Origin: Vicinamibacterales bacterium
GTDB taxonomy: Bacteria; Acidobacteriota; Vicinamibacteria; Vicinamibacterales; UBA8438
DNA length: 64,000 nt
Reading direction: 5' to 3'
Assembly: GCA_965216615.1 (NCBI GenBank)
Contig: CBDCGH010000014.1
Span: 24,369-88,368, forward strand
Shown here: positions 27,953-45,043 of the stretch, one piece after another
Position numbering within the stretch: position 1 is the stretch's first letter
How the letters are laid out: every line of letters starts with the position of its first letter
Notes under the pieces: generated by a model
Seen by the model: only the letters and a program-made list of their open reading frames with translations
Told to the model about the DNA's origin: nothing
The model's database searches: none
Made by a program: the position numbers and the translations under genes

Positions 27953-27991
27953 CCGAGACGGCCGAACACGAGAACACGGAGCAAGGAGCGG

Positions 27992-28528: not shown

Positions 28529-28546
28529 AGGAAGGATCCGCACACC

Positions 28547-29058: not shown

Positions 29059-30090
29059 CTATCCGCAGACGTCGCCGAGGAAGCCGCCGCCGCCGCAGTA
29101 GTTGGCGTCCTGAAGCTGGATGCTGATCCCGTCGGGATCGGTGAAGTACAGCTCGGGCGTGCCCCCGGGAGCCCCACCGCGATCCTCCATCCGCATCGCC
29201 ATATTTGATTGGAGCGGGCCGGCCGGGCCTGAGCCGTTGCCTCGCGGCGTAATTCCGAACTCCTCGAGCGTGGCGATGACACGGTCCAGCTCGAAGTTCT
29301 CGATTGTCAGGCAGGCGTGGTGAATCCGTGGTCCAGGCCCACTAGCACCACCGCCGGCCAGCGCAATGAACTGGTTAGGCGCCCCGGCAGACAGGAGCGG
29401 CATGGCCCCTTGGTAGATCTGGACCGGCATGCCGAACAGGGTCTGATAGAAACCGAACGATTGATCGGCATCTGAGACGAAGAGGGTGAAGTGGTTGTAC
29501 TCGCGAACCTTCAAGAGTCCGCTGGTCGGGGATGCCTCGACGGGCGAGCGGCACTCGCCCAGCACGCCCTCCCCGCCGCAGTAGGTCGCGTCTTGGAGCT
29601 GCACCACAATGCCGTCCGGGTCACTGAGATACAGCTCTGGCGTCCCCTCTGGCGCACCGCCGAAGTCGTCGCCGCGCATCCGGACGCGAACATTGAGCGG
29701 GCGGCCGTGGAGCCGTCCGGACTCGGGAGCGACAGACTGCAGGCCGTGCTCGTGAAGCTTCCGCACGAGCGCGTCAACGTCAAATCCTTCGACCATCAGA
29801 CAGAGGTGGTCGATGCGAGGCGTCGCGTTCCGCGCGCCGCCGCTCAAGGCGATGAACTGTGGGCCATCTCCGACGCGCAAGACGGGCGTCGACGCCTGCC
29901 ACGCCTGAATCGGCATACCGAAGAGTCCCTGATAGAACTCGAGGGAGCGCTGCACGTCCGAGACCGTGAGCGTCATGTGATTGATACCGACCACAGGGAT
30001 GGGCGGCGGCGTCGATTGGGCCAGGCCACGAGGGGCGGCGACATACGCGCTCATAGTGGTAAGAAAGGTCCGACGGGTAAGCGCAGACAT
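29059..30090 (-). CDS. Tat-exported tandem VOC (glyoxalase/dioxygenase) family protein
   Basis: Twin-arginine signal MSALTRRTFLTTMSAYVAAPRGLAQ. Two VOC modules start at GINHMTLTVSD and YNHFTLFVSD. Confidence 0.7.
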   Translation of the reverse strand: MSALTRRTFLTTMSAYVAAPRGLAQSTPPPIPVVGINHMTLTVSDVQRSLEFYQGLFGMPIQAWQASTPVLRVGDGPQFIALSGGARNATPRIDHLCLMVEGFDVDALVRKLHEHGLQSVAPESGRLHGRPLNVRVRMRGDDFGGAPEGTPELYLSDPDGIVVQLQDATYCGGEGVLGECRSPVEASPTSGLLKVREYNHFTLFVSDADQSFGFYQTLFGMPVQIYQGAMPLLSAGAPNQFIALAGGGASGPGPRIHHACLTIENFELDRVIATLEEFGITPRGNGSGPAGPLQSNMAMRMEDRGGAPGGTPELYFTDPDGISIQLQDANYCGGGGFLGDVCG

Positions 30091-30099: not shown

Positions 30100-31467
30100 C
30101 TAGACGCCCGACAGTGGCGACATATCGAGTCGCTCGGTGCCGTCGCCGAGGGTCTCAGCCGAGACACCGGCCTTGTCTAGGACACTGAGCAGGAGATTGG
30201 CCATCGGTGTGTCCTTCTCCGTGTCGTAGGCCAGGTGGCGGTTGCCCTGGAGCCGGCCGCCCCCCCCACCCGCCACCAAGCAGGGCAGGTTGGTGTGCTC
30301 ATGGAGGTTCCCGTTCCCGATGCCACCGCCGTACACGATCATCGAGTGATCCAGCAGCGTCCCATCGCCATCGGGCGTCTGGCGCAATTTTTCCAGGAAG
30401 TACGCGAGCAATGAGACGTGGTATGTATCGATTTTCGCCTTCCGCGCCATGTAGTCCGGGTCGTTGCGATGGTGTGAGACGGTATGGTGCTGGTCGGCGA
30501 CACCGATTTGCGGATAGGTCCGCGGGCTGGCCTCTCGAGCCATCATCAGCGAGAAGACGCGCGTGATATCAGCCTGGTAGGCGAGGGCCTGCAGGTCAAA
30601 CATCAGCTTGGCATGCTCCCCGAAACTCTCGGGGATATCGATCGGTCGGTCCGGGAGCTCGACGAGCTCCTCGTCCCCGCGTGACTCAGCTCGCTGAATG
30701 CGTTGTTCGAGGTCACGCACCGAGTCGAGATACTCCGTGAGCTTGGTGCGGTCTTGGGGGCCGAGTGTGCGTTCCAGGCTAAGGACCTCCTGCGTGACGG
30801 AATCGAGAATGCTCCCGGTTTGACGGACCTGAGCGAGCCGATCGGAGGCGCTTCCCCCGTCGCCGAACAGACGCTCAAAGACGACACGAGGGTGTGGCTC
30901 CATGGGCAGGGGCGTCGTGGGGTTCAGCCAGGAGATCGTGTTCGAGTAGAAGCAGTCGCCGGTATCGCAGGCGATGGCCGTTGGGGCTTCCAACACGAGC
31001 TCGAGCGAGGGGAGAGGCGTCTCCCGTCCAAGCTCCCGAGCGGCGAGCTGGTCCGCCGTCGTTCCCAGCTTGATATCGGTTGGACCCTGTCGACCGCGTC
31101 GTTCCCACGCATGCACGCCGCTCAGCCATACGGCGGTGGCCCGCGGGTGATCCCCGTTTCCATCGCCAAACGAGTCGGCCTGGCGATGGGCGAGTCCGCT
31201 CAGTACGAGTAGCCTGTCACGAAATGACTCGAGCGGACTCAGGATTGGAGAGAGATCGAAGCCGCGACCGGTGGTAGGCGGCACCCATTGCGGCTGGATG
31301 ACGCCGTTTGGGACGTAGATGAACCCAAGGCGACGGATCGGGTTCGCTGCGGTCTTCGCCAGCGCCGAGGCGGCCGGTACCATCGCGTCCAGCAGGGGCA
31401 ACGCGAGGGTTGCCCCGATTCCGCGCAGGAACGTGCGTCGTGGAAGGGCCTTCTTGGTGATGATCAT
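30100..31467 (-). CDS. DUF1552 (HXXSHH) family protein with a Tat signal, copy A
   Basis: MIITKKALPRRTFLRGIGATLALPLLDAM and the HHTVSHH motif. Its ATG overlaps the upstream stop (ATGA). Confidence 0.8.
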   Translation of the reverse strand: MIITKKALPRRTFLRGIGATLALPLLDAMVPAASALAKTAANPIRRLGFIYVPNGVIQPQWVPPTTGRGFDLSPILSPLESFRDRLLVLSGLAHRQADSFGDGNGDHPRATAVWLSGVHAWERRGRQGPTDIKLGTTADQLAARELGRETPLPSLELVLEAPTAIACDTGDCFYSNTISWLNPTTPLPMEPHPRVVFERLFGDGGSASDRLAQVRQTGSILDSVTQEVLSLERTLGPQDRTKLTEYLDSVRDLEQRIQRAESRGDEELVELPDRPIDIPESFGEHAKLMFDLQALAYQADITRVFSLMMAREASPRTYPQIGVADQHHTVSHHRNDPDYMARKAKIDTYHVSLLAYFLEKLRQTPDGDGTLLDHSMIVYGGGIGNGNLHEHTNLPCLVAGGGGGRLQGNRHLAYDTEKDTPMANLLLSVLDKAGVSAETLGDGTERLDMSPLSGV

Positions 31468-33869
31468 GATTGGGACTGCCTCATCTGGAACGGTTGGCTG
31501 CGGACGATACCGAGCACAATCGAGGAAAAACGGTAGTCCTCCTGTGCGGCATCTCGCGCGATCGCCCGGACGGTAGGCGCGTCGAAGTGCTCGATTCCAC
31601 GGCCGAGCGCGTACATCAGGAGTTTCTCGGAAAGGGTGGCGACAAATCGATCGGGTTTATCGGCGATCGAGCGGAGAAGGGCGACTGGGCCATCGAGTTT
31701 CGTGCCATCAGGAAGCTCAGCCGACGCATCGATTGGTGCCCTCGAGCCGTCGGTCGTCCGCCATCGTCCGATCGCGTCATAATTCTCGAGCGCAAACCCC
31801 AGCGGATCCATGAGGCGGTGACAGCTCGCACAGGCTGGGTTGCTCCGGTGCAATTCCATCGCCTCACGCATGGACCGCGGCTCGCCGCTCTCGGTCCGCT
31901 CATCGAGCGATGGTACGTCCGGCGGCGGCGGCGGCGGCGGAGACGCAAGCAGGTTCTCGAGGATCCACTTGCCTCGCAGGACCGGGGATGTCCGCGTGGC
32001 GTACGACGTGAGGGTCAGGATACTCCCATGGCTGAGGAGTCCGCGGCGGGGCGTTTCGTGCATCGAGACCCGCCGGAAGTGACTGCCGTAGATGTGAGGT
32101 ACGCCGTAGTGCCTGGCCAGCCGCTCGTTGAGATACGTGTAGTCGGCGGTGAGCAGGTCGAGGACACTGCGGTCCTCGCGCAGCACGCTGGTGAGGAACA
32201 ACTCGGTCTCTCGCTGGAACGCCTGCCGCAGGTTCTCGTCGAAGCCGGGGTAGAACCCCGGGTCGGGTTCCTTCGCATCGACGTCGCGTAGAAACAGCCA
32301 CTGGGCGGCGAAGTTCTTGACGAGCGCCTCTGCCTTGGGATCGGCGAGCATCCGCCGAACTTGCCCGTTCAGGACGTCCGGCGCTTGCAGTCTGCCGTCA
32401 ATGGCGGCATCCAGGAGCTCGTCGTCAGGAATACTGCTCCAAAGGAAGAAGGACAGCCGCGACGCCAGCTCGAGGTCGGCGATGTCGTATGGCGAACCAG
32501 CTGCGATTCCGCCCGGCTCGCGTTCGATCCGGAAAAGAAACGCCGGGCTGACGAGGATTCGCTCGATCGCGCGCTGGATTCCGCGCTCGAAGCCTCCCTC
32601 GACGACGCCCTGTTCGTAAAAGGGCCGGAGTCGCTCGAGATCGCCATCTGTGATCGGACGTCGATACGCACGCCGGGCAAGCGTGGAGATGATCGTGGTC
32701 GCACACGCACCCGCGGTGACGGGTGACGCGTCGGCCCCTGGATCACACACGAAGATCCGCCGGCGGCTCGGTGTGTCACCGGATCCGTCGGCGCCGAACG
32801 GCCCGCTTACGACCACGCTGGATAGCGCGGGAAGGCCGCCACGGGTGCGCCGAGCGCGTCGAACCAGCCCTTCGGATTGAGCGCCACTCTTCGGGAGAAA
32901 CGCGACGGCGATCTCCCGCGGACCGGCTCGAAGTGGCACACGAACCTGAACATCGGGGTCCGAAGCGAAGGTGAACACGCCGCTGGCGAGGCGTTCGGGC
33001 GGGTTCTCGCCGACTGTGAAGGTCTCCATGCGCCGTCCATCGACGCTCAGCTCGAGTTCGTGGGGCTCTCGCGCCGCCCCGGCGAACCCGATGGTGACGA
33101 CGTACTCCCCATCCAGCGGGAGGTGGCTGCGAATGCGCATGCCTCCACGCGTGCCGAGGGGTAACCCATCAAGGTGGCCGTCTTGAACCAGCTCGTTGTC
33201 AAGCTGATACGTATCGACAATCGGCAGCATCGTGCGATCCCCAACCGCGAGACGGCTGATCTTGCGAGCTGCGCCCAGATACCGCTCCATCAAGGTGGGC
33301 GAGACGAACAGGAGGTCGGCCAGGTTATCGAATCCGCTTGTCGCGTTGTCGCCCGGCAGAAGTACCGAGATATCGAGCTCCCGCGGCAGATCGTTGAGCG
33401 CGAGGAGATCACGGATCGCGTTCTGATACTCCGTTCGGCTCAACCGGTGCAACGCTGGCTGACGCCCGGAATTCGGATTTGCGGCGGCTGCGCGGTCGAG
33501 CTTTGACTCCAGCCACGAGGCCACCAGATCATTCGTCGCGTCATCTGGCCGCGGCCGGCCGGCAGGCGGCATCGTGCCGTTCCGGAGCCGTTGGACGACG
33601 CGTTCCCATTCAGCGGGGTCTGCGCCGACGTCGTCCGGGTTGAGGCGATCGAGGGCCAGTCCGGTCGCTCGGATCTGGGCGACGAGCGGAGTCGGCGCTT
33701 GGCCGGCGCCGGCGACGACCTTCTCGCTATGGCAGGTGACGCAGTATTGATCGAGAAACGCGCGCGGCGAGTCCGACGAGGATCGTCGAGCCTGCTGAGC
33801 GTACGCAGACCCGGGGCCAAGAGGCGCCATCAGAAAGGCCACCGAGGCGTACCACACCCAGCGTGTCAT
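31464..33869 (-). CDS. DUF1592/DUF1595/DUF1587/DUF1588/DUF1585-type multidomain c-type cytochrome, copy A
   Basis: Signal peptide from the M at 33869. N-terminal DQYCVTCHS and C-terminal NPACASCHRLMDPLGFALENYDAIGRWR, typical of this planctomycete/acidobacterial family. Confidence 0.8.
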   Translation of the reverse strand: MTRWVWYASVAFLMAPLGPGSAYAQQARRSSSDSPRAFLDQYCVTCHSEKVVAGAGQAPTPLVAQIRATGLALDRLNPDDVGADPAEWERVVQRLRNGTMPPAGRPRPDDATNDLVASWLESKLDRAAAANPNSGRQPALHRLSRTEYQNAIRDLLALNDLPRELDISVLLPGDNATSGFDNLADLLFVSPTLMERYLGAARKISRLAVGDRTMLPIVDTYQLDNELVQDGHLDGLPLGTRGGMRIRSHLPLDGEYVVTIGFAGAAREPHELELSVDGRRMETFTVGENPPERLASGVFTFASDPDVQVRVPLRAGPREIAVAFLPKSGAQSEGLVRRARRTRGGLPALSSVVVSGPFGADGSGDTPSRRRIFVCDPGADASPVTAGACATTIISTLARRAYRRPITDGDLERLRPFYEQGVVEGGFERGIQRAIERILVSPAFLFRIEREPGGIAAGSPYDIADLELASRLSFFLWSSIPDDELLDAAIDGRLQAPDVLNGQVRRMLADPKAEALVKNFAAQWLFLRDVDAKEPDPGFYPGFDENLRQAFQRETELFLTSVLREDRSVLDLLTADYTYLNERLARHYGVPHIYGSHFRRVSMHETPRRGLLSHGSILTLTSYATRTSPVLRGKWILENLLASPPPPPPPDVPSLDERTESGEPRSMREAMELHRSNPACASCHRLMDPLGFALENYDAIGRWRTTDGSRAPIDASAELPDGTKLDGPVALLRSIADKPDRFVATLSEKLLMYALGRGIEHFDAPTVRAIARDAAQEDYRFSSIVLGIVRSQPFQMRQSQS

Positions 33870-33903
33870 TACCCAAACTGACTTGTACGCCGCATCTTCG
33901 GCG

Positions 33904-33932
33904 TTGTCAACCTCACGTCCACGGGGTAGCAT
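33904..33932 (+). promoter_or_regulatory. candidate promoter TTGTCA-N17-TAGCAT for ankyrin operon A, conserved with 41696-41724
   Basis: TTGTCAAC-N13-GGTAGCATT occurs at the equivalent place upstream of both ankyrin genes. The opposite strand of the same core reads TTGACA. Confidence 0.55.
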
Positions 33933-33958
33933 TTTCCGTGGTTGGAGACTGCCTGCCC

Positions 33959-35578
33959 ATGCGATCCCGCTTCCTGCTGCTCGCCTTCTTCCTCGGTCCG
34001 CTGGTCAGCGCGCTCGTCACACCCAGCTTGCTGACGGCTGCGCAGCCTGGCGAGGTTGCCGGGGGCGACCCACCGGTGATCGCGGCCGTTAGACGCGCTC
34101 AAGACGGCTCGGCCTCGGAAGCTGTCCGGAGCCTGCTGGATGCGGCCGCGGACGCTGACGCCGGCGGCGTTGCCAATGCGGCCAACGCCGCCCAGGCTGA
34201 TGGCACAACCGCGATGCACTGGGCCGCGCGCCACGATGACCTGGAGACGGTTCGGCTCCTAATCGACGCAGGCGCCGATGTCGGAGCCGTCAACCGCTAC
34301 GGCGTGACGCCGCTACACCTCGCCGCCACAAACGGTAGCGCGAGCGTTGTGGCCGCCCTGCTCGACGCGGGTGCTGATCCGAATACGGCGTCGCCCGGAG
34401 GCGACACCATACTGATGGTCGCGGCGCGGACCGGTCGAGTCGAGGTCCTCAGACGCCTGATTCGCGCGGGAGCTGAAGTTGATCGTCGCGAGAACTGGCG
34501 CAATCAAACCGCGCTGATGTGGGCGGCGGCGGAGGGGCATGCAGAAGCCGTCGACCTGCTGGTCGAAGCCGGCGCGGAAGTGGACGCACGATCGGACGGG
34601 AAATGGAGCCCCTTGCTGTTTGCGGTCCGGGAGGGGCAGTTGGACGCGGCTCGTGCGCTGCTCGCGTCTGGGGCGGACGTGAACGGCGCCGCTCCGGGCG
34701 GGTCGAGCCCGCTCGCGGTGGCTGTGATCAACGCGCACTACGAGCTAGCGCTCCAGCTGCTGGAGGCCGGCGCGGATCCAAACGCCGCGGATCCGAGAGG
34801 CGCCATCCTCCATGCGCTGGCGTGGATGCGACGTCCCGGATCGGGCAGTCCACCGTTGCCCACTGGTGGCGTGTCGAGTCTGGAGCTCGGGCGAGCTCTG
34901 CTCGAGCGGGGCGCGGATCCGAATCGGCGGGTCGATTGGGAGGAGATTCCGTTCGAGGTCGACTTGGGCGTCGTGAAGCTCCCGCCAGGCATCTCAGTCG
35001 GCAGAAATTTTCTGAGCTTCGTCGGGGCGACACCCTTCTATCTGGCGGCCAAACATGCCGATCTCGATCTCATGCGCTTGCTGATCGAGCACGGTGCGGA
35101 TCCCCTCACGTCGACCTCGCAGCACGTCACGCCGCTCATGGCGGCTTCCGGTGTCGGCTTCTGGGATGGTGAAAGCCCCGGACCGAACAATGGGACACCA
35201 GAGGCGGTGCGGCTCGAAGCCGTGCGGCTCGCGCTCGAGCTTGGCAACGATATTCATGCCGCCACCGAGTTCGGGGACACCGCGATCAAGGGGGGCGGCG
35301 TCGACCTGTTGAGGCGCCATCCTGTGAACCTCAGTGAGTTCGACCCTCAGCGAGACCGAGGTGACATGCGGTGGGGCGGGAGCACCGCCCTACACGGCGC
35401 GGCGATGATGGGAGCGAACGTCATCGTCGAGTTCCTGGTGGAGCACGGCGCGCGGCCGGACGAGACGAACGATCTCGGCTGGACGCCGTTGATGGTCGCC
35501 GAGGGTGTCTTCGTGGCGAACACCGAGAAAGCGTGGCCGGAGACGGCCGCTCTGATTCGCGATCTGATGCGGCAATAG
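33959..35578 (+). CDS. exported ankyrin-repeat protein, copy A
   Basis: Signal peptide MRSRFLLLAFFLGPLVSALV... and multiple G.T(A/P)LH.AA..G......LL..GA(D/E) repeats. Confidence 0.8.
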   Translation: MRSRFLLLAFFLGPLVSALVTPSLLTAAQPGEVAGGDPPVIAAVRRAQDGSASEAVRSLLDAAADADAGGVANAANAAQADGTTAMHWAARHDDLETVRLLIDAGADVGAVNRYGVTPLHLAATNGSASVVAALLDAGADPNTASPGGDTILMVAARTGRVEVLRRLIRAGAEVDRRENWRNQTALMWAAAEGHAEAVDLLVEAGAEVDARSDGKWSPLLFAVREGQLDAARALLASGADVNGAAPGGSSPLAVAVINAHYELALQLLEAGADPNAADPRGAILHALAWMRRPGSGSPPLPTGGVSSLELGRALLERGADPNRRVDWEEIPFEVDLGVVKLPPGISVGRNFLSFVGATPFYLAAKHADLDLMRLLIEHGADPLTSTSQHVTPLMAASGVGFWDGESPGPNNGTPEAVRLEAVRLALELGNDIHAATEFGDTAIKGGGVDLLRRHPVNLSEFDPQRDRGDMRWGGSTALHGAAMMGANVIVEFLVEHGARPDETNDLGWTPLMVAEGVFVANTEKAWPETAALIRDLMRQ

Positions 35579-35599
35579 GGTAAGAGACGGGAGATAACG

Positions 35600-37747
35600 A
35601 TGCGCCGAAGACTCGGACTCGCAGTCGTTAGTGCCAGCGCCATCGTGTGGCTCGTGGGAGCGCACGGACTGTTCGCGGCGCGACCCAATACCGGTGTGAT
35701 CACCGGGACAGTGACCAGCGCGAGTGGGGCAGAAGCCGGCGTATGGGTGATTGCCGAAACCGACGAGCTCGAGACCGTGTATCGCAAGATCGTTGTGACC
35801 GACGACGAGGGTCGGTTCTTGCTGCCGGATATGCCAGACGTGCGGTTCAACGTATGGGTACGCGGATACGGCTTAGTCGACTCGATCCCCGTTCCCGCGA
35901 GGCCCGAACAGGATATCGACCTCACCGCCACCGTGGCCCCGACGCCGCAAGCGGCCGCCGCCGTGTACCCGGCGAACTACTGGCTGTCGCTGATTGACCT
36001 CCCGGAGGCGCACGAGTTCCCCGGTACAGGAGAAGGCGGCAACGGGATCAACCCCGAGCTCAAGTCGCAAGGTGAGTGGATCAACAACCTGAAAGGGTGC
36101 CAACGGTGTCACCAGGTAGGCAGTCTGCGGACCCGCGACGTTCCGGACATTCAAAATTTCGACTCGACACTGGCCGCGTGGAATGATCGGGTTCAGCGTG
36201 GACAGAGAGGGGCGCTGATGAACAGTTTCATGACGCGCTTTGGCCGCCAGCGCGGCCTCGAGATGGTCTCCGACTGGACCGACCGGATTGCGGCAGGTGC
36301 CGTTCCCGAGGCGCCACCACGGCCGACAGGGATCGAGCGCAACGTCGTGTTGACGATGTGGAATTGGGGTGACAGCGTGGCCTTCGTCCACGACGAAATC
36401 GCGACCGATAAGCGGGACCCGACCATCAATGCGAACGGTCCGATCTACGGCGTCGACATCGGCAACGATTTCCTCCTGGTCACCGATCCTGGCGAGCATC
36501 ACTCGACGATGCTCAAGATCCCGCTGCGAGCGCCGCGGGACAGCGTCCAGTCGATGTTCACGACGGAGGGATTCAAGCCATGGCGCGACTTTGGTGAGCG
36601 CGCCGTGTGGAACGATCCCGCGAATCCGCACAACCCGATGCTGGACAGCGAGGGGCGGGTGTGGCTGACGACGCGCGTACGGGCGCCGGAGAACCCGGAC
36701 TGGTGTCGGGAGCAGTCCGACAACCCATTCGCGCAGTACTTCCCGATCGAGCGGGCCGGCCGCCACGCCGGCTACTTCGACCCGAGAGCGCAGAAATTTG
36801 TTCTGATCGACACCTGTTTCGGCACCCATCACCTGCAGTTTGCCGAGGATGAGCACGACACGCTGTACTTCAGCGGGGGCGGCTCGGCGATCGGGTGGAT
36901 CAACACGAGGATGTACGACGAGACCGGCGATGAGCGCGCATCGCAGGGCTGGTGCCCGACGGTTCTCGATACCAACGGCGACGGCACCATTACCCAACCG
37001 TGGAACGAGCCACCGCCCAGAGGCGCGACGGCACCAACGCCAGACCCGTCGCTCGATACCCGCGTGGTCGTCGGCGCGTACGGCGTCATTGTCAGTCCGG
37101 TTGATGACGCGGTGTGGGTCGCATCCGACCGCTATCCGGGAGAGCTCCTGCGCCTGGATCCCGGCGACCATCCTCCGGAAACATGTATCAGCGAGCTCTA
37201 CGTCGTGCCGGCAGAGCAGGGCTATCGTACGCGTGGTCTAGACGTCGACAGAAGCGGCGTGCTGTGGACGGCGCTCGCGGGCAGCAGCCATTTCGCGAGC
37301 TTTGATCGCACGAAGTGCGCCACGCTCGGAGGTCCGGCAAACCGGGATGGCCGTCAGTGTGACGAGGGTTGGACGTTTTATCCGATGCCCGGTCCAGCGT
37401 ATGCCGGCACCAACATCGGTGCCGACTTTCACTATTACAACTGGGTGGACCAGTTCAATACGCTCGGACTAGGGGAGAACATCCCGATCGCGAACGGCTC
37501 CAACTCCGATTCGCTATTGGCCTTGATACCGGAGACCGGCGAATGGGTCGTGCTGCGCGTGCCCTACCCGCAGGGCTTTCACAGCCGGGGACTCGATGGC
37601 CGGATCGATGATCCCGAGGCGGGGTGGAAGGGGCGCGGTATCTACGCGACATATGGCGCCGACGCCGCGTGGCACGTGGAAGGCGGTCCGGGTGAGCCAG
37701 GCAACCTCGTGAAGTTTCAGATCCGCCCGGATCCGCTGGCTGAGTGA
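35600..37747 (+). CDS. exported CarboxypepD_reg-like domain + single CxxCH + beta-propeller-like protein, copy A
   Basis: Signal peptide, GVITGTVTSASGAEAGVWVIAE...DDEGRFLLPDMP, and CQRCH at 36098-36112. The C-terminal region has ..RGLDVDRSGVLWTAL..-type blades. It is a paralog of 49136-51358. Confidence 0.65.
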   Translation: MRRRLGLAVVSASAIVWLVGAHGLFAARPNTGVITGTVTSASGAEAGVWVIAETDELETVYRKIVVTDDEGRFLLPDMPDVRFNVWVRGYGLVDSIPVPARPEQDIDLTATVAPTPQAAAAVYPANYWLSLIDLPEAHEFPGTGEGGNGINPELKSQGEWINNLKGCQRCHQVGSLRTRDVPDIQNFDSTLAAWNDRVQRGQRGALMNSFMTRFGRQRGLEMVSDWTDRIAAGAVPEAPPRPTGIERNVVLTMWNWGDSVAFVHDEIATDKRDPTINANGPIYGVDIGNDFLLVTDPGEHHSTMLKIPLRAPRDSVQSMFTTEGFKPWRDFGERAVWNDPANPHNPMLDSEGRVWLTTRVRAPENPDWCREQSDNPFAQYFPIERAGRHAGYFDPRAQKFVLIDTCFGTHHLQFAEDEHDTLYFSGGGSAIGWINTRMYDETGDERASQGWCPTVLDTNGDGTITQPWNEPPPRGATAPTPDPSLDTRVVVGAYGVIVSPVDDAVWVASDRYPGELLRLDPGDHPPETCISELYVVPAEQGYRTRGLDVDRSGVLWTALAGSSHFASFDRTKCATLGGPANRDGRQCDEGWTFYPMPGPAYAGTNIGADFHYYNWVDQFNTLGLGENIPIANGSNSDSLLALIPETGEWVVLRVPYPQGFHSRGLDGRIDDPEAGWKGRGIYATYGADAAWHVEGGPGEPGNLVKFQIRPDPLAE

Positions 37748-37778
37748 TCCGACTCGCCACCAGACGACAGGCGCCGCT

Positions 37779-39107
37779 CTACACGTCGGACAGCAGCTCG
37801 ATCGCGCCGGCCTGATTGCGCATCTGCTCGACCGGTGCACCCATCTTGTCGAGCAGCGTCATGAGTAGGTTGCTCGCCGCGCCATCCTCATAGCGAAGAT
37901 GACGTCCACCGGCGAAGAGACTGCTTCCGCCGACCATCAGGAGCGGAAGGCCCGTGCTTTGGTGCCGATTGCTATCAGACATGCCGGCGCCATAGAGCAA
38001 GACCATGTGGTCGAGCAAGGAGCCGTCTCCGTCCGGTGTGGCCTGGAGCTTGTCGAGATAGTACCCGAGCAGCGAGACGTGGAACTCGTTGATCTTCGTG
38101 ATTTTCTCGTAGAGCAGCGGGTTGTCGCGATGATGTGAGGTCGGATGGTGCGAGTCGGGTACGCCGATCTCGGCGTAGGTCCGTCCGCTGATCTCACGAC
38201 CGAGCATGAAGGTGATCACGCGCGTCAGGTCGGTCTGATACGCGAGCACTTGAAGGTCGAACATGAGCTTGGCGTGATCTTCGTAGACCCGCGGGATGCC
38301 AGCGGGCTGCGGTACCTCCGGGAGCTCGCGGTCGCTCTGTTCCTCCGCCTTCTGAATGCGCCGCTCGACGTCACGGACCGCCTCGAGGTACTGGTCAATC
38401 TTCTGGCGATCGCCCTCGCCGACCTGGCGGGTCAAGGTGGCCACCTTGTCTGTGACCGAATCTAAGATGCTCCGCTCGCGTTTGATCTGACCGAGCCGGG
38501 CAGCCTTGTCAGTGGTCCCGGCATCACCGAACAGGCGCTCAAAGACGGCGCGCGGATTGGGTTCCATCGGCAACGGGGTCGTCTTGTTACGCCAAGCGAT
38601 CGTGCTCGTGTACATGCAGCTGAAGCCAACATCACATGAACCGGAGACGTCCCGTGGATCGAGGGCCAATTCGAGTGATCCAAGCTGTGTGTCCTGGCTC
38701 GACTCTCGTGCGATGAGCTGGTCGACTGAGACGCCCGCGTTCAGGGTCGACTCGGAACGAGCCGGAGTGACACCGGTGAGAAACCGCGTCGCTGCGCTGG
38801 CATGGACGCCCGAGTTACTCGGCACCGCGTTGAGGCCGGTGAGGACCAGCATGCGATCTCGGTGCTGCGATAGTCCAGACAGAATGCGACTCGCCTCGAA
38901 GCCCGCGCCGGTGGTCGCGGGCGTCCAGTTCTTCATGGCCATTCCGTTCGGCACATAGACGACGCCGAAACGTCGTGCGGGCCGTGAGACCAGGTTGCGG
39001 GCAGACGCGAGGGCCGGAACCATCCCGTCGAGAAGCGGCAGCGCCAATGAGGCCCCGAGACCACGGAGGACGGTTCGGCGTGGAATGGATCGCTTCGTAA
39101 TGATCAT
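37779..39107 (-). CDS. DUF1552 (HXXSHH) family protein with a Tat signal, copy B
   Basis: MIITKRSIPRRTVLRGLGASLALPLLDGM and the HHPTSHH motif. It is collinear with copy A. Confidence 0.8.
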   Translation of the reverse strand: MIITKRSIPRRTVLRGLGASLALPLLDGMVPALASARNLVSRPARRFGVVYVPNGMAMKNWTPATTGAGFEASRILSGLSQHRDRMLVLTGLNAVPSNSGVHASAATRFLTGVTPARSESTLNAGVSVDQLIARESSQDTQLGSLELALDPRDVSGSCDVGFSCMYTSTIAWRNKTTPLPMEPNPRAVFERLFGDAGTTDKAARLGQIKRERSILDSVTDKVATLTRQVGEGDRQKIDQYLEAVRDVERRIQKAEEQSDRELPEVPQPAGIPRVYEDHAKLMFDLQVLAYQTDLTRVITFMLGREISGRTYAEIGVPDSHHPTSHHRDNPLLYEKITKINEFHVSLLGYYLDKLQATPDGDGSLLDHMVLLYGAGMSDSNRHQSTGLPLLMVGGSSLFAGGRHLRYEDGAASNLLMTLLDKMGAPVEQMRNQAGAIELLSDV

Positions 39108-41629
39108 CAGTGAGACCTCCGCATCTGGAACGGCGTGCTCTCTACGATTCCCATAATGATAGCCGACCAGCGATAGTCTTCGGGCGCAGCCTTTCGAACC
39201 ACCGTGCGTACGGTGGGGGCGTCGTAATACTCGAGTCCGCGCCCAAGCGCGTAGATGAGCATCTTTTCTGTCACTGTGCCCACGAAGTCATCCGGTCGGC
39301 TAAGGAGCAGATCACGGAGCCCGGTCGGGCCATCAAAGACGCGGCCGTCTGGAAGCGCTCCCGAGGCGTCGATTGTCTCCCCGGCGTAGGACGGACGCCA
39401 CGCTCCGATGGCATCGTAATTCTCGAGGGAGAAGCCGATCGGGTCCATGGGCGCATGGCACCCGCGACACGCGGGGTTTTCGCGATGCTGCACCATCGCC
39501 TCGCGCATCGTGAGCGTGCGCCCATCGCGCTTCTCCTCGAGTGTCGGCACGTTCGGCGGCGGCTCTGGCGGCGGTGCACCCACCAGATTCTCGAGAACGA
39601 ACTTGCCGCGCAGGACCGGAGACGTACGGTTCGGATACGAGGTCACGGTCATCAGACTGCCGTGTCCGAGCAGACCGCCGCGTCGGCCGTCGGTGAAGGC
39701 GATCTTCCGAAATCGGCTCCCGTTGATACCGGGGATGCCATAGTGCCTCGCGAGCCGTTCGTTGACGAACGCGTAATCGGCATTGAGGAGCTCGAGGACG
39801 CTGCGGTCTTCCTGCAGTTGATACCGCATGAACAGCTGGGTCTCGCGTTCAAAGGCCTCGCGAAGGTTTTCGTCGAATTCCGGAAACAAATGCGGGTCGG
39901 GGTAGACCGACCGCATATTTCGTAGAAAGAGCCACTGCCCGACGAAGTTGTCGACCAAAGCCTCGGACCTGGGGTCGGCGAGCATCCGGCCAACCTGCCT
40001 GCTTAGGACCTCGGGATCGCTCAGGCTCCCGTCTTCCACTCGGGAGAGAAGCGCGTCGTCCGGAATGCTGCTCCACAGAAAGAACGACAGGCGCGAGGCG
40101 AGCTCCGCCAGAGCGAGGGGATACGTGGATCCCGGCGACGCATCGATCGGGTGTCGCTCGATCCTGAACACGAAGTCGGGATCGGCGAGCAACCGCTCCA
40201 GCGCGAACTGAATACCGGTCTCGAACGTTCCACCGTCCCGACCCCTCTCGAAGAACTCGACGAGGGTGTCGATGTCGGTTGAGGTGAGCGATCGGCGGTA
40301 CGCAAGCCGGCCGAGGCGCGACAGAATCTCACGTGCGCAGTCGGTCTCGATCGCACGAGAGGCTCGCTTCGGATAGCAGCTGAAGATACGCTGACGGCTG
40401 GGTGTGTCTCCGGGTCCAGTGATGTCATATGGTCCGGTGATTTCAATGCTGCCGAGCCGTGGATAGGAGTCTGGCATCTCGTTGATCGCGAGGGCGAATC
40501 CGACCTGGCGCGGTTGGAGCACGCCTTCGTCTTCCCACGTCTCCCGTGGAAACGTGACCGCAATCAGTCGAGATCCGGCCTGGACCGGGAGGCGGATTTC
40601 AAGCCCGTCGTCCGCGTGAAGCATGTACTCTTCCCACTCGATGTCCCCCCGAACGTTCCCGGCATAGCTCAGTGGTGCCGGCATGCCCGGGGCTTCACCG
40701 CCGAAGGTGAACTCGGCGATACGGCGCCCGTCGAGACGAATCTCGAGTTCGTGCGCCTCGTCGATTCCGCGCACGTACCCGACGTAGTTCGTTTGCAACC
40801 GCACCCGGACCGAGTACTCCCCGTCGACGGGAAAGTTGTGACGAATCGCGCCGCCGCCCCGTGAGCCGAACGGGAGGTCCTCACTCAGCTGGTCATCCTG
40901 AATCAGGTTGAGCGGAATGTCGTAGGTGTCGACCACCGGGCCATGGGGCTTTGCGCCGACCGCAAGGCGGCTGATCTTCCGCGCGGTGGCCACGTATCGT
41001 TCGAGCAACGATGGCGAGATGGACAAGGCCCCGGCGTTGTTGTCGAAGCCATTCTGATCTGGGGCATCAGCCGGGAGGAACGCGGAAACGTCCACTTCAA
41101 GGTGAAGCAGATCGCGGACGGCATTGCCATATTCCGTACGGTTCAACCGATGGAACGCCTCCGTTCGACCCGGATCGGGCCGAGTCGCTGCCGCTCGGTC
41201 GAGCTCGTCCTCCAGATACCTCCGGAAGCGGTCATACGCGACTGGAACCGGGCGCGGCCTTGGGGGCGGCGGCATGGCGCCGACACGAAGTTTCCGGACG
41301 ACGCTCTCCCAGAGCTCCGGGTCGCCCGCGACGTTCGCGACGTCGGCGTCGTCGAGCGTCAATCCGAGATGCCGAAGCTGCACACTCAGGGCCGACGGGT
41401 CGTCGACGACCCCCGGAGACCCGCTCGTGCGGGCCTGGTTGTGGCACGTGACGCAGTACTGGTCGAGTAGGGTTCGATGAGCCGCGATCTCCGAGGAGGA
41501 CGCGTTTGACGTGCTGGACCCGCTCTGTTGGCCGGCCGAGGCCTGGAGATACGCGGCAGCCGTCGTGAGCGCGAACAACGCGAGTACCCAGCTGCCCTGG
41601 CGCAGACTCGGAATCACCCGCGACGTCAT
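39107..41629 (-). CDS. DUF1592-type multidomain c-type cytochrome, copy B
   Basis: Signal peptide from the M at 41629. DQYCVTCHN and NPACRGCHAPMDPIGFSLENYDAIGAWR. It is collinear with copy A. Confidence 0.8.
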   Translation of the reverse strand: MTSRVIPSLRQGSWVLALFALTTAAAYLQASAGQQSGSSTSNASSSEIAAHRTLLDQYCVTCHNQARTSGSPGVVDDPSALSVQLRHLGLTLDDADVANVAGDPELWESVVRKLRVGAMPPPPRPRPVPVAYDRFRRYLEDELDRAAATRPDPGRTEAFHRLNRTEYGNAVRDLLHLEVDVSAFLPADAPDQNGFDNNAGALSISPSLLERYVATARKISRLAVGAKPHGPVVDTYDIPLNLIQDDQLSEDLPFGSRGGGAIRHNFPVDGEYSVRVRLQTNYVGYVRGIDEAHELEIRLDGRRIAEFTFGGEAPGMPAPLSYAGNVRGDIEWEEYMLHADDGLEIRLPVQAGSRLIAVTFPRETWEDEGVLQPRQVGFALAINEMPDSYPRLGSIEITGPYDITGPGDTPSRQRIFSCYPKRASRAIETDCAREILSRLGRLAYRRSLTSTDIDTLVEFFERGRDGGTFETGIQFALERLLADPDFVFRIERHPIDASPGSTYPLALAELASRLSFFLWSSIPDDALLSRVEDGSLSDPEVLSRQVGRMLADPRSEALVDNFVGQWLFLRNMRSVYPDPHLFPEFDENLREAFERETQLFMRYQLQEDRSVLELLNADYAFVNERLARHYGIPGINGSRFRKIAFTDGRRGGLLGHGSLMTVTSYPNRTSPVLRGKFVLENLVGAPPPEPPPNVPTLEEKRDGRTLTMREAMVQHRENPACRGCHAPMDPIGFSLENYDAIGAWRPSYAGETIDASGALPDGRVFDGPTGLRDLLLSRPDDFVGTVTEKMLIYALGRGLEYYDAPTVRTVVRKAAPEDYRWSAIIMGIVESTPFQMRRSH

Positions 41630-41695
41630 GCCACGCTCAGGGTCGACCACAACTAAGTACCAGAAGAAACAATAGTTTGGCGTGATGTGAGTCTA

Positions 41696-41724
41696 TTGTC
41701 AACGTGGCTGAGCTGCGGTAGCAT
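41696..41724 (+). promoter_or_regulatory. candidate promoter TTGTCA-N17-TAGCAT for ankyrin operon B
   Basis: Same hexamers and spacing as 33904-33932. The ATG at 41739 follows 14 nt after the -10. Confidence 0.55.
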
Positions 41725-41738
41725 TGGGCGCAAGCCGT

Positions 41739-43298
41739 ATGCATGTGAACAGGGGAGTGTCCGCGTCCGGACTCATCGTTTTGGCGGTCTGTGTGTTCCT
41801 GATTGGGTTGCCGGCGGCGGAAGCACAGCGAGCCGGTGCCGACCATCAGCTGATCGAGGCTATCAAGGCGCAGGACCTCGTGTGGGCCCGCGAGCTCTTG
41901 GATGACGGGGCGGATGTGGATGAGACTCAGCCAGATGGGGCGACCGCCCTACACTGGGCCGCGCATCGAGAGGATCTGGCTGCAGTCGAGCTATTACTCG
42001 AAGCCGGAGCGAACGTGGCCGTGGCCAACGAGCTTGGCGCGACGCCACTGTGGGTCGCCAGCGTCAATGGGACCGCGCCGGTAATCGAGCGCCTGCTTCG
42101 GGCGGGGGCCAATCCTAGTATCAGGCTTCCGGAGGGCGAGACGCCCCTGCTGACAGCATCTCGCTCGGGCAACGTCGACGCCGTGAAGCTCCTTCTTGCG
42201 GGTGGAGCGAGTCCCAATGCCCGCGAGGAACGTCGTCATCAGACCGCGTTGATGTGGGCTGCAGCTCGGGGGCACACGGACATCGTTCGGGTGCTCATCG
42301 ATGCCGGGGCGGACGTCGGCGCGCGTTCGAAGGCGCGCGAGCGCCTGCTGTTCGCCGACAAGCGACAGGGCAACCAGTACGACCAGGGCGTCGAAGTCGC
42401 GAAGGGCGGATACACGCCACTGCTGTTTTGCGCCCGTCGAGGTCAACTGGAGGCCGCCCGCCTTCTGCTGGCCGCCGGAGCGGACGTTAACGATCAGGCT
42501 CCAGATGGCGCGAGCGCTCTGGTGGTTGCGGCGCATAGCGGCCACATTGGGCTCGTTGAACAGCTGCTCGAGTCTGGGGCTGAGCCCAATGCCATCGATG
42601 CCGGGTACGCGCCGCTTCACGCGGCGGTGCTGAGAGGAGAGATCGCGATGGTGCGCGCACTCTTGGCACATGGGGCCGACCCAAACCTCCGCCTCGAAAA
42701 GGGAACGGCGCTCAGGCGCGCAGGCATGGACTGGGCGTTGAGACCAGCGTTCGTGAGTGCGACACCGTACTGGCTGGCCGCCCAGTATCGCGAACCTGAA
42801 ATCATGCAGGTGCTGGCTGATGGGGGAGCTGACCCCTCGATCCGCACGCTGCCGCGCCCCGTGCCGGTCAAGGCGCGGGCAGGAGGTGTGGGCCCGCCAC
42901 GTATGGAAGGTGGATTCGAGACGCCTCTGCTGGCGGCGGTGAGAGGTCAAAACGACAGGGAGCGGCGGTTCTTGCTCGACGGTCGCTTTGTCGACCGCGC
43001 CGCTGAAGAACGCTTGGCGCTCCAGGCGGTTTCTATCGCAATCGACCATGGGGCGGACATCGATGCCCTCGACCGCGGCGGGAACACCGTGTTGCACGGC
43101 GCTGCCTCAAACAACTTCATTCCCCTCATAAGACTATTAGCGGAACGAGGGGCTCAACTCGAAATGAAGAACAAGGGCGGACGGACGCCGCTGGATGTGG
43201 CCAAGGCTGCTGAGGAGCGCCGAGGCCGTCGCTCCGATACCGTCGAGTCTGGACCGAGCGCCGCGGACGTGCTGCGTGAACTCGGCGCGACCCGATAG
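41739..43298 (+). CDS. exported ankyrin-repeat protein, copy B
   Basis: Signal peptide MHVNRGVSASGLIVLAVCVFLIGLPAAEAQ, with ANK repeats throughout. Confidence 0.8.
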   Translation: MHVNRGVSASGLIVLAVCVFLIGLPAAEAQRAGADHQLIEAIKAQDLVWARELLDDGADVDETQPDGATALHWAAHREDLAAVELLLEAGANVAVANELGATPLWVASVNGTAPVIERLLRAGANPSIRLPEGETPLLTASRSGNVDAVKLLLAGGASPNAREERRHQTALMWAAARGHTDIVRVLIDAGADVGARSKARERLLFADKRQGNQYDQGVEVAKGGYTPLLFCARRGQLEAARLLLAAGADVNDQAPDGASALVVAAHSGHIGLVEQLLESGAEPNAIDAGYAPLHAAVLRGEIAMVRALLAHGADPNLRLEKGTALRRAGMDWALRPAFVSATPYWLAAQYREPEIMQVLADGGADPSIRTLPRPVPVKARAGGVGPPRMEGGFETPLLAAVRGQNDRERRFLLDGRFVDRAAEERLALQAVSIAIDHGADIDALDRGGNTVLHGAASNNFIPLIRLLAERGAQLEMKNKGGRTPLDVAKAAEERRGRRSDTVESGPSAADVLRELGATR

Positions 43299-43336
43299 CT
43301 GCGGACAAACCCCGAAACGGGACCCCTGAGGATGCT

Positions 43337-45043
43337 ATGAAGAGTCGAGTAACGGTCTCAGCAGTGTGTGCGTGTGTCGTCGCGGTTTCGCTACTGTCGG
43401 CCCAGAACCGGGTCGACCCCTATCGACCGGTGACCGATGCGATGCTCCAGAACCCTGAGCCGTCGGAGTGGCTCAACTGGCGGCGCACGCTGGATGGGTG
43501 GGGCTACAGCCCGCTGGACCAGATCACGCGGGACAACGTGGGCGAGTTGCGCCTTGCGTGGAGCTGGGCCCTGGCCGAAGGCGCCCAGCAAACGACCCCA
43601 ATCGTGCACGACGGCGTCATGTTCATCGCGAATCCCGGTGCGATTGTGCAGGCACTGAACGCGGCGACCGGTGACCTCATTTGGGAGTACCGTCGGGCCA
43701 ACCTTGCGGAGCACCGAAATCTGGGCAGCGTCATCTCGGGCCGGGTGCATCGCAGTATCGCCATCTATGGCAACACGATCATTCTGAATACCCCCGATGG
43801 GTGGATCGTGGGAATCGACGCGCGCACGGGTGAAGAAGCCTGGGAAGCCGACGTTGGCGCATCTGGCGGATATCAGTTCTCGAGCGGCTCGATCGTCGCA
43901 GACGGAACGGTGGTGGCCGGCATGGCAGGCTGCAGCATCTATCGCGATGACACGTGCTACATCGTCGGGCTCGATGCGGAGACTGGTCGGGAGAAGTGGC
44001 GGACCTCAACGGTCGCGCGACCGGGCGAGCCTGGCGGCGACACCTGGGGCGATCTACCCGTGATGTTCCGTGCCGGGAGCGACGCCTGGATTCCGGGAAG
44101 CTACGACCCGTGGAGTCGGACCATCTTCATCGGCACCTCGCAAGCCAAGCCGTGGCATCGGCAGGCACGTGGCACCGACGGTGATGCGCTCTACACCAAT
44201 TCGACGCTCGCCCTCGATCCCGACACGGGAGAGCTCAAGTGGTACTACCAGCATCTCCCGGCCGAGACACACGATATGGACGAGACGTTCGAGCGGATCG
44301 TGATCGACGTCGACGGCCGGCCGTCGGTGTTTAGTATGGGGAAGATCGGCGTCCTTTGGCAGCTCGACTTGGCAACCGGCGCGTTTCAGGCCGCCCACGA
44401 CCTCGGGTACCAGACGTTGCTCGATATCGATCCGGCCTCCGGGGCGATTGCCTATCGCGAGGGGATGCTCAAAGACCTTGGTGAAGAGATCTTCTGGTGC
44501 CCGACCACGTCGGGCTTCAAGAGCTGGCGGGCGATGGCGTACCACCCGGACACGGAAGCGCTATACATTCCGATCATTCTGAATTGTGAGACCGCAACGT
44601 TCGGTCCGGTGGAGAAAGTGGTGGGCGGCGGCGGAACGGGACCGGTGCGTCGAACGAACCATTTCCATCCGAAGAGTCCCGACCACCTTGGAGAGTTCGC
44701 CGCCATGAACATCCGGACCGGCAAGGTGTTATGGAGCCATCGCTACCGGACCCCGATCAACAGCGCTGCGCTGACGACGGGGGGAGGGCTCGTGTTCGCA
44801 GGCGACTGGGATCGCCACATGCGTGCCTACGACGTGAGGGACGGCGAGGTGCTCTGGGAGACACGCCTCCCGCAATCAATCCAAGGATTCCCCATCACTT
44901 ACGCCGTAGATGGAACGCAGTACGTGGTCGTGCCGACGGGGACTGGTAGCGCGAGTTGGGGCACGATGCCAGCCGTGCTCACTCCGGAGAAGCATCGTCC
45001 TACGGGTGGGAACGGGATCTTCGTGTTCAAGGTGCCGTCGTAA
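43337..45043 (+). CDS. PQQ-dependent dehydrogenase (methanol/ethanol-family-like 8-bladed propeller), exported
   Basis: Signal peptide, then the N-terminal signature DAMLQNPEPSEWLNWRRTLDGWGYSPLDQITRDNVGELRLAWSW...TTPIVHDGVMF...ALNAATGDLIWEY. Confidence 0.8.
   Translation: MKSRVTVSAVCACVVAVSLLSAQNRVDPYRPVTDAMLQNPEPSEWLNWRRTLDGWGYSPLDQITRDNVGELRLAWSWALAEGAQQTTPIVHDGVMFIANPGAIVQALNAATGDLIWEYRRANLAEHRNLGSVISGRVHRSIAIYGNTIILNTPDGWIVGIDARTGEEAWEADVGASGGYQFSSGSIVADGTVVAGMAGCSIYRDDTCYIVGLDAETGREKWRTSTVARPGEPGGDTWGDLPVMFRAGSDAWIPGSYDPWSRTIFIGTSQAKPWHRQARGTDGDALYTNSTLALDPDTGELKWYYQHLPAETHDMDETFERIVIDVDGRPSVFSMGKIGVLWQLDLATGAFQAAHDLGYQTLLDIDPASGAIAYREGMLKDLGEEIFWCPTTSGFKSWRAMAYHPDTEALYIPIILNCETATFGPVEKVVGGGGTGPVRRTNHFHPKSPDHLGEFAAMNIRTGKVLWSHRYRTPINSAALTTGGGLVFAGDWDRHMRAYDVRDGEVLWETRLPQSIQGFPITYAVDGTQYVVVPTGTGSASWGTMPAVLTPEKHRPTGGNGIFVFKVPS

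Follow-up and report, generated by a model that had tools for sequence, protein, structure and literature searches.

Two diverged copies of a three-gene unit lie side by side in a Vicinamibacterales bacterium, within the stretch of contig CBDCGH010000014.1 analysed here (the window, 64,000 nt in full, whose positions serve as coordinates throughout). This trio consists of a PSCyt3/DUF1592-type protein, a DUF1552 (HXXSHH) protein, and an exported ankyrin-repeat protein of about 520 residues. Its three genes have been passed down, copied, and reordered together, as a unit, in Acidobacteriota, Gemmatimonadota, and marine Gammaproteobacteria. An earlier note on this DNA had proposed a larger module of four genes, in which the PSCyt3/DUF1552 pair stands divergent from an ankyrin gene that is followed by the gene of a periplasmic oxidoreductase; the conserved unit is the trio and not this four-gene set. 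The pair of PSCyt3/PSD and DUF1552 proteins is described from Planctomycetota and Verrucomicrobiota as having no known function (He et al. 2017, PMC5615132; Studholme et al. 2004, as cited there). In the accessible text of the sparse literature that mentions DUF1552 or DUF1592, no report of an ankyrin partner was found, and the ankyrin protein as a third partner of this known but uncharacterized pair appears to be previously unreported.

All eight open reading frames (ORFs) of the earlier note are present at their coordinates, and a Pfam search of the window ORFs bore out its domain calls. In copy A, the minus strand encodes DUF1552 (30100..31467, 455 aa, Pfam PF07586 E 2e-92) with a twin-arginine translocation (Tat) signal, and PSCyt3 (31464..33869, 801 aa counted from 33869 in an ORF that extends to 33932, with CxxCH at residues 43 and 680), while the plus strand encodes Ank_A (33959..35578, 539 aa, ORF from 33863), which has Pfam Ank families and a signal-like N-terminus. 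In copy B, the minus strand encodes DUF1552 (37779..39107, 442 aa, Tat signal, E 4e-95) and PSCyt3 (39107..41629, 840 aa, ORF to 41650), recognized by Pfam and by its conserved residues, and the plus strand encodes Ank_B (41739..43298, 519 aa, ORF from 41724), a Pfam-supported member of a large family conserved over its full length. Database gene calls agree with the start codons chosen for PSCyt3_B (840 aa, 39107-41629) and Ank_B (519 aa, 41739-43298). The PSCyt3 and DUF1552 genes overlap stop to start by 4 nt in copy A and by 1 nt in copy B, and alignments of the two copies display the shared motifs RRT[FV]LRG, HH..SHH, DQYCVTCH, and NPAC..CH..MDP.GF.LENYDAIG.WR. The three shared components are full-length paralogs, with BLASTP identities of 49% for DUF1552, 51% for PSCyt3, and 37% for the ankyrin protein, so the duplication that had been claimed is real and old. 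Ank_A is a divergent paralog of Ank_B with insertions and deletions of its own. The match in architecture between the two copies is far beyond chance; their fourth genes, CPDreg_A and PQQ_B, are unrelated to each other.

At least 597 loci matched Ank_B in a scan over one genome per species, and the linkage counts are based on the best 80. They come from Vicinamibacterales/Vicinamibacteria (40), unclassified Acidobacteria (19), Bryobacterales/Terriglobia (12), Gammaproteobacteria such as Pseudohongiella and OM182 (8), and Longimicrobiales (1). The Ank_B homologs are full-length, about 520-540 aa, and more than 50% identical. Loci were scored by comparing six-frame ORFs with the window proteins; gene calling based on GC content at third codon positions is unreliable in the lower-GC gammaproteobacterial loci. 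Adjacency was counted for the 68 ankyrin genes that have 4.5 kb or more of flank on each side. The ankyrin gene lies beside PSCyt3/DUF1552 in 66 of these (97%), and both partner genes lie within 4.5 kb in 64. The two exceptions are an ankyrin gene flanked by transposases (locus L036) and one directly downstream of a gene for a cupredoxin-fused pyrroloquinoline quinone (PQQ) dehydrogenase (L056). Four gene orders occur: PSCyt3>DUF1552>Ank in one direction (41 loci, median gap 40 bp), divergent as in the window (19 loci, 178 bp), Ank>PSCyt3>DUF1552 (3 loci, 54 bp), and convergent (3 loci, 21 bp). The divergent layout, which had been taken as the rule, is thus a minority arrangement and does not define the unit. 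DUF1552 lies directly downstream of PSCyt3 on the same strand in essentially all related loci.

The linkage is reciprocal. A metagenome scan seeded with PSCyt3_A showed an adjacent ankyrin gene in all 14 sub-family loci with enough flank, and look-ups seeded with the HXXSHH protein agree. Three ankyrin homologs looked up in annotated contigs all stand next to DUF1552<-PSCyt3, two of them (L003, L004) in otherwise unrelated surroundings, and next to a B-type trio in locus L085 the layout of copy A recurs, CPDreg<-Ank<->PSCyt3->DUF1552. The flanks of two distant pairs from the PSCyt3_A scan (L110 and L113, 34-37% identity) hold no ankyrin gene, so the link is specific to this sub-family; the homolog scans return the closest matches, and the sampling of the DUF1552 family is biased to close relatives with these two distant pairs only. 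The earlier expectation that the ankyrin gene would be syntenic with the pair elsewhere is therefore borne out by the 66 of 68 loci, the reciprocal scan, and the co-divergence described below. The view that exported ankyrin proteins are unusual in free-living bacteria was overstated, given at least 597 such loci among species-representative genomes; the trio family occurs in free-living lineages of soil, groundwater, and the open ocean.

Between Acidobacteria and marine Gammaproteobacteria (including L010-L015, L022, and L115-L117), DUF1552 and PSCyt3 are about 65-72% identical, far above expectation for these phyla, which suggests horizontal transfer of the whole cluster. Insertion sequence (IS) elements are frequent around trio modules (L118/L119, L036). 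On the syntenic contig L001 (2465-6008) an ISL3 transposase interrupts the CPDreg gene of copy A, and in L119 PSCyt3 is truncated in an IS-rich region that leaves DUF1552 and Ank intact.

The members of the trio also diverge together. Distance matrices for 81 trios correlate with r = 0.91 for PSCyt3 and DUF1552, 0.88 for PSCyt3 and Ank, and 0.80 for DUF1552 and Ank (Mantel p <= 0.0005). Because a shared species phylogeny inflates Mantel r, contigs that carry two trios served as a control. Orthology assigned by the ankyrin protein equals orthology assigned by PSCyt3 in 13 of 15 contig pairs, and both disagreements involve L018 with margins near zero. This agreement indicates that the trio was duplicated and inherited as a unit. 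The ankyrin protein evolves faster than its partners, with a mean p-distance of 0.56 against 0.46-0.47. A-type and B-type trios, about 50% identical, adjoin not only in the window but also in five other loci (L032, L044, L060, L064, and L085), with relative orientations that vary, and in all five the A-type Ank orthologs lie beside A-type pairs. The tandem in the window is therefore an old, retained arrangement; a recent local duplication is ruled out by the 37-51% identity together with the A- and B-type orthologs in other genomes. The adjacency of the two types may mark a functional coupling of the paralogs or just a retained tandem duplication. One chromosome, OZ219745.1, contributes four of the 80 kept loci (L052, L060, L064, and L078), three of which hold at least two trios.

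All three trio proteins carry export signals, of Sec type in the ankyrin protein and PSCyt3 and of Tat type in DUF1552. A twin-arginine motif is present in 120/120 DUF1552 homologs, and signal-like N-termini are present in 117/120 homologs of PSCyt3. The same count, 117/120, holds for the hydrophobic signal-like segment of the ankyrin homologs, in keeping with the earlier claim that this protein is exported. Ank_2 scores of 203 and 237 bits in Pfam place multiple ankyrin repeats above threshold. NCBIfam lacks a model for DUF1552, PSCyt3, and CPDreg alike, and Pfam at E<=10 adds no weak links.

PSCyt3 is a large multidomain protein. Both copies contain, each above its gathering score and in this order, the Pfam domains PSD3, PSD5, PSD4 (DUF1592), PSCyt3 (DUF1588), and PSD2, and the same set is precomputed for all 120 homologs, which span Acidobacteria and marine Gammaproteobacteria and of which the 120th-ranked is still 65-68% identical. 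The layout of copy B runs from a signal peptide through a class-I-like cytochrome c domain, PSD3, a beta-sandwich, PSD5, and PSD4 to PSCyt3 with a second CxxCH and, finally, PSD2. The N-terminal match to Cytochrome_CBB3 reaches 25.8 bits, under the cut-off of 27 bits. Invariant residues (copy B numbering) are C59/C62/H63 with M119 and C721/C724/H725 with M728, and the domain at the N-terminus has the look of a true class-I cytochrome c. The AlphaFold model has a pLDDT of 56, with a better-defined beta-sandwich at about residues 230-405 that gives weak matches to CBM35, CBM6, and C1q jelly-rolls (E 0.002-0.1). Such a carbohydrate-binding module (CBM)-like sandwich would fit the CBM domains reported for other PSCyt proteins (PMC5615132). 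Single-sequence and profile searches found no relative of PSCyt3 among PDB sequences.

DUF1552 belongs to a family of about 16,000 clusters at 50% identity. Both copies match PF07586 over their full length, scoring 310 and 320 bits where the cut-off is 30, and the top 120 homologs of copy B, again from Acidobacteria and marine Gammaproteobacteria, are all at least 69% identical, with the one ranked 120th at 70%. A diverse alignment of 79 sequences (A6) has invariant R11, G55, D129, Q130, D216, D233, H321, H325, H382, and G393, with H102 and H326 near-invariant; R10 and R11 are both invariant in the shallow alignment A2, and in A6 R10 is near-invariant. The AlphaFold model (pLDDT 53, pTM 0.60) drew 41 top Foldseek matches, of which 40 are to the alkaline phosphatase (AP) superfamily, namely sulfatases, LtaS, YejM/PbgA, and phosphonate monoester hydrolases (E ~0.01, TM ~0.3). 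By eye, the order of motifs in DUF1552 appears to match the sulfatase core. The stretch at the place of the C/S-x-P-x-R formylglycine motif of sulfatases reads GVHASAATRFLTG and does not contain that motif, and Pfam at E<=10 returns no Sulfatase and no Phosphodiest match. A sulfatase is ruled out for DUF1552, since the nucleophile motif is missing. DUF1552 is probably, on weak evidence, a Tat-exported, His-rich metalloprotein of sulfatase fold.

These features suggest how the trio may work. We lean, if not strongly, towards a periplasmic complex in which PSCyt3 contributes a cytochrome c and a jelly-roll, DUF1552 is a metalloprotein, and the ankyrin protein is a scaffold or assembly factor. 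A function in electron transfer or substrate capture is plausible. The three proteins would assemble in the periplasm, DUF1552 having first folded, and probably taken up its metal, in the cytoplasm, which is the proposed reason for its export through Tat. DUF1552 would present a sulfatase/AP-like core with a near-invariant histidine where sulfatases have their formylglycine nucleophile. Its cluster of invariant histidines (H321, H325, and H382) points to a metal centre and speaks against the active site of a sulfatase. PSCyt3 would use its class-I-type cytochrome c domain for electron exchange and its jelly-roll for binding. The ankyrin protein would act as a cognate scaffold or assembly factor, by analogy with AnkB, an ankyrin-like protein of the periplasm that the haem catalase KatB is described as needing for its full activity (Howell et al. 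2000, cited in PMC12754779). In the sub-clade of the window, the trio may work together with CPDreg, a Tat-exported glyoxalase-fold protein, and PQQ dehydrogenases that have no cytochrome of their own. These accessory proteins plausibly exchange electrons with the cytochrome domain of PSCyt3 and would be lineage-specific add-ons, not part of the core.

More doubtful is an extended form of this complex, in which the ankyrin protein is an obligate structural subunit and DUF1552 is an AP-fold protein whose His-ligated redox metal centre is linked, by way of the PSCyt3 cytochrome, with periplasmic dehydrogenases. If true, it would provide the first function for the very large PSCyt/DUF1552 'dark matter' families and the first ankyrin protein that is a core subunit of a bacterial extracytoplasmic enzyme. 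The dedicated, co-evolving ankyrin partner is an experimental handle, offering a three-protein complex, candidate electron donors, and a defined accessory set in the closest relatives. Pseudohongiella and Vicinamibacteria are trio-bearing lineages with cultured members.

Several observations weigh against the complex as proposed. The alignments behind both AlphaFold models hold near-identical homologs (65-88% identity) and the window paralogs only, which explains the low confidence of the models and reduces their fold matches to hints. No relative of DUF1552 was found among PDB sequences by single-sequence or profile search. The histidine at the nucleophile position comes from likening GVH(102)ASAATRFLTG to the sulfatase pattern C-x-P-S-R-x-x-x-L-T-G, a correspondence drawn by eye and not computed. 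When A6 was compared with a DUF1501 protein by hhalign, the C-terminal core aligned in a positionally sensible way, with an E value of 0.0046 and a probability of only 7.6%; the shallow A2 gave no match. Furthermore, the genes flanking the trio are very heterogeneous, so that it has no tie to a single pathway, and the frequency of PQQ dehydrogenases near trios may partly reflect how common they are in these genomes.

The foremost alternative is that the trio captures and hydrolyses a substrate. DUF1552 would then be an AP-superfamily hydrolase acting on an esterified periplasmic substrate, PSCyt3 a binding protein or receptor whose CxxCH is structural or sensory, and the ankyrin protein an adaptor, with many trios each serving a different substrate in the manner of polysaccharide-utilisation loci. 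The sulfatase-like fold matches of DUF1552 and the CBM35/CBM6-like sandwich of PSCyt3 are consistent with this, as are the several trios of genome OZ219745.1 and heterogeneous neighbours that include TonB-type receptors. The literature also reports CBM domains in some PSCyt proteins with sulfatase genes nearby (PMC5615132) and a secreted CBM2-DUF1592 protein of Cellvibrio in a lignocellulose-degrading community (PMC6004670). DUF1552, however, has neither the C/S-x-P-x-R motif nor a Sulfatase or Phosphodiest match in Pfam, no glycoside hydrolases or sulfatases are among the commonest immediate neighbours, and the N-terminus of PSCyt3 is cytochrome-c-like, with an invariant CxxCH and a downstream methionine. 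We regard hydrolysis as possible but doubtful.

It is less probable still that the ankyrin protein is a transient periplasmic maturation chaperone for PSCyt3 or DUF1552 that is absent from the mature complex, in strict analogy to AnkB and KatB. Beyond that precedent, a chaperone would be compatible with the faster evolution of the ankyrin protein and with the promoter-like element that the ankyrin gene has to itself in divergent layouts. The ankyrin protein, at about 520 aa, is nonetheless far larger than AnkB, which has about 180-190 aa, and the median gap of 40 bp to DUF1552 in most loci suggests matched expression levels. The paralog-specific co-divergence, moreover, is explained at least equally well by a stable cognate interface.

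The promoter-like element, TTGTCA-N17-TAGCAT, has only two matches in the window against 0.06 expected, each just upstream of an ankyrin start codon. One (33904..33932, plus strand) lies in the 89-bp divergent intergenic region of copy A, 27 bp upstream of the Ank_A start codon, and the other (41696..41724, plus strand) lies in the 109-bp region of copy B, 15 bp upstream of that of Ank_B. Both extend to TTGTCAAC...GGTAGCAT, and the -10 region CTGCGGTA(C/G)(C/G)AT is conserved in related loci. Outside the window, 8 of 36 divergent intergenic regions carry a related motif, and most of these belong to close relatives of copy B. The element may be a dedicated regulatory signal.

That the trio extends to a fixed four-gene module with an obligate oxidoreductase, the model of the earlier note, is highly improbable. 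It had its basis in the window, where an exported redox-type gene starts 21-38 bp after each ankyrin gene, and parallels exist: Ank->PQQ recurs in L003 and L004, PQQ follows Ank in L115-L117, and a PQQ-cupredoxin gene lies directly upstream of Ank in L056. Detection of PQQ genes by phmmer misses divergent ones, such as the neighbour of L003, so tallies of Pfam families in neighbouring genes were added, in which the first non-trio gene on each side was run against Pfam. The 65 genes on the ankyrin side fall into 61 families, led by peptide deformylase (4), metallo-beta-lactamase (4), PQQ (3), molybdopterin oxidoreductase (2), CarboxypepD_reg (2), and cytochrome c (2). The 68 genes on the side of the pair fall into 62 families, including CarboxypepD_reg (7), glyoxalase (2), and PQQ (1). 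A PQQ dehydrogenase is thus the immediate neighbour at 4 of 133 flanking positions, and more than 60 Pfam families occur on each side. The divergent layout of 19 of 68 loci and the confinement of CPDreg to one sub-clade likewise speak against the module.

Similarity bins complete this picture. Among the 17 loci closest to the window (HXXSHH phmmer score >=640), CPDreg occurs in 12, a glyoxalase-fold protein in 6, and PQQ in 5; the corresponding counts are 1, 0, and 4 in 15 loci scoring 540-640 and 1, 2, and 8 in 40 loci scoring 250-540. PQQ lies within ~10 kb in ~20-30% of loci, in close and distant trios alike, and PQQ_B-like genes are found near trios in several loci but are rarely adjacent. 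The bins and the tallies rule out a PQQ dehydrogenase as a fixed partner, and the 'fixed pairing' with periplasmic oxidoreductases does not survive 3 of 65 neighbours on one side and 1 of 68 on the other. Of the synteny once expected for the whole four-gene set, the ankyrin part stands and the PQQ or haem oxidoreductase downstream of it does not. PQQ dehydrogenases are facultative neighbours of the trio. CPDreg and, less often, the glyoxalase-fold protein are real accessories only in the sub-clade of the window (CPDreg in 12 of 17 loci against 2 of 55).

An ankyrin protein that is a eukaryote-like host-interaction effector, brought next to the pair by chance or hitch-hiking, is the reading usually given to bacterial ankyrin-repeat proteins, and the best NCBIfam matches are to effectors of the Legionella type IV secretion system (121 bits at best, far below cut-offs of 450-1400), but it is effectively refuted by 97% adjacency over three phyla and four gene orders and by co-divergence with the pair, and it sits ill with a Sec-type signal in free-living lineages of soil, groundwater, and the open ocean. 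It is routine to class the ankyrin proteins of Acidobacteria and marine bacteria among 'eukaryote-like' symbiosis factors. For metagenomics, this large ankyrin family is tied instead to a periplasmic module in free-living organisms.

The accessory genes are spaced in the window like members of operons. CPDreg_A (35600..37747, plus strand, 715 aa, exported, with a weak CarboxypepD_reg match and one CxxCH) begins 21 bp after Ank_A, and PQQ_B (43337..45043, plus strand, 568 aa) begins 38 bp after Ank_B. On the minus strand, 9 bp separate DUF1552_A from a two-domain glyoxalase/VOC-fold gene (29059..30090, Pfam Glyoxalase E 4e-16), which probably belongs to the copy A operon. Its product starts with the twin-arginine signal MSALTRRTFLT..., so this glyoxalase/extradiol-dioxygenase-fold protein is presumably periplasmic, which is unusual for the fold; homologs flank the trio in marine gammaproteobacterial loci, L118, and L077. 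CPDreg is an exported family with an N-terminal CarboxypepD_reg-like domain, an invariant CxxCH, six more invariant cysteines, a DTNGDG calcium-loop-like motif, and a stretch of ~550 residues that has no Pfam, NCBIfam, or PDB relative. Homologs occur in L007-L015, L022, L047, L057, L085, and L115. In a widespread marine bacterium, an AraC regulator, a CPDreg homolog, a glyoxalase-fold protein, PSCyt3, DUF1552, Ank, a PQQ dehydrogenase, an HpcH/HpaI aldolase, an SGL-type propeller, and a TonB receptor are all encoded in one direction.

PQQ_B is a soluble enzyme of alcohol/sorbose type (Pfam PQQ 187 bits, E 8e-55). By homology to its PDB relatives 22vi, 4cvb, and 4mh1, at E 1e-99 to 1e-105, it is predicted to be a PQQ-dependent alcohol dehydrogenase with the eight-bladed propeller of solved quinoproteins; its score against NCBIfam TIGR03075 is 335, below the cut-off of 480. 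A second enzyme, PQQ_C, lies further along on the minus strand (ORF 47020-49482, overlapping the upstream gene, with a true start probably at ~49113) behind CPDreg_C (49136-51475, minus strand, true start probably near 51358), which is 56% identical to CPDreg_A. No trio adjoins this pair of genes (47020..51475), so CPDreg proteins also pair with PQQ enzymes alone. Neither enzyme is a quinohaemoprotein, as PQQ_B has no CxxCH or cytochrome domain and PQQ_C has a C-terminal cupredoxin instead. This cupredoxin has an intact-looking type-1 copper ligand pattern, H...C-E-D-H-P-W-A-M, and the same fusion is found in L001 (15373-17466) and L056 (6909-9479). It would give the enzyme its own blue-copper electron acceptor in the place that cytochrome c takes in quinohaemoproteins. 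Both PQQ enzymes lack the vicinal Cys-Cys typical of methanol and ethanol dehydrogenases, and both score moderately, well below cut-off, against 'acido-empty-quinoprotein group A' (TIGR04528).

Just upstream of copy A (27425-29029, plus strand), a small protein with a weak cytochrome c' match is followed by two tandem DUF6644 membrane proteins, which may make up a further small unit of redox or membrane type. IS1595-family and DDE_3 transposase genes lie about 6-8 kb upstream, at 22600-24668. Rfam and tRNA scans of the 64-kb window were empty.

A comparison with known systems places the trio among several partial likenesses. PSCyt-domain proteins with DUF1552 or DUF1501 partners have reportedly been known since 2004. 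With the known PSCyt3/DUF1552 pair the window proteins share the PSD3-PSD5-PSD4-PSCyt3-PSD2 architecture, a translationally coupled, adjacent DUF1552 gene, and multiple paralogs per genome; this sub-family differs in its dedicated gene for an exported ankyrin protein of ~520 aa and in its occurrence in Acidobacteriota, Gemmatimonadota, and Gammaproteobacteria. The pair of PSCyt2/PSD1 (DUF1549/DUF1553) and DUF1501 likewise sets a large, exported multidomain CxxCH protein beside a Tat-signal protein of ~450 aa, in other Pfam families, and we know of no ankyrin partner for it. DUF1501 and DUF1552 share the order of their core motifs, along with the weak C-terminal hhalign match, and a DUF1501 gene beside the trio in L005 is a separate system. 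The PSCyt2 and PSD1 domains are each given as occurring 41 times in R. baltica (PMC2754498). To the sulfatase/AP superfamily DUF1552 would be linked by weak but consistent fold matches and a similar order of core strand and metal-motif elements; it differs in lacking C/S-x-P-x-R and in a His-rich invariant set that replaces the canonical ligands.

Two further systems bear on electron transfer. PQQ alcohol dehydrogenases with a dedicated cytochrome c acceptor include ExaA/ExaB and XoxF/XoxG, besides the quinohaemoproteins. PQQ_B, which has no cytochrome and is encoded beside a protein with a class-I-like cytochrome c domain, may follow the same logic; here the acceptor would be a multidomain protein of 840 aa that has two more partners, and the PQQ adjacency is facultative. 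Cbp2D of Cellvibrio japonicus combines CBM2, X158, and cytochrome c domains with DUF1587/PSD3, and one such domain passes electrons to lytic polysaccharide monooxygenases (LPMOs) in vitro (PMC8981238). It resembles PSCyt3 as a secreted multidomain protein with PSD3 and c-type cytochrome domains, putative in the case of PSCyt3, and differs in its overall architecture and in having no reported DUF1552 or ankyrin partner. The surroundings of the trio showed no LPMO genes.

Finally, katB-ankB is the closest parallel for the ankyrin protein. Its partner is a catalase, whereas the proposed partners in the window are PSCyt3 and DUF1552; no catalase gene is present in the window or among the 25 commonest neighbour families on either side of the trio. 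In both systems an exported ankyrin protein shares an operon with an exported haem protein, putative in the case of PSCyt3, and katB-ankB, where the ankyrin protein is needed for the function of its partner, is the best precedent for a bacterial ankyrin protein that is not an effector.

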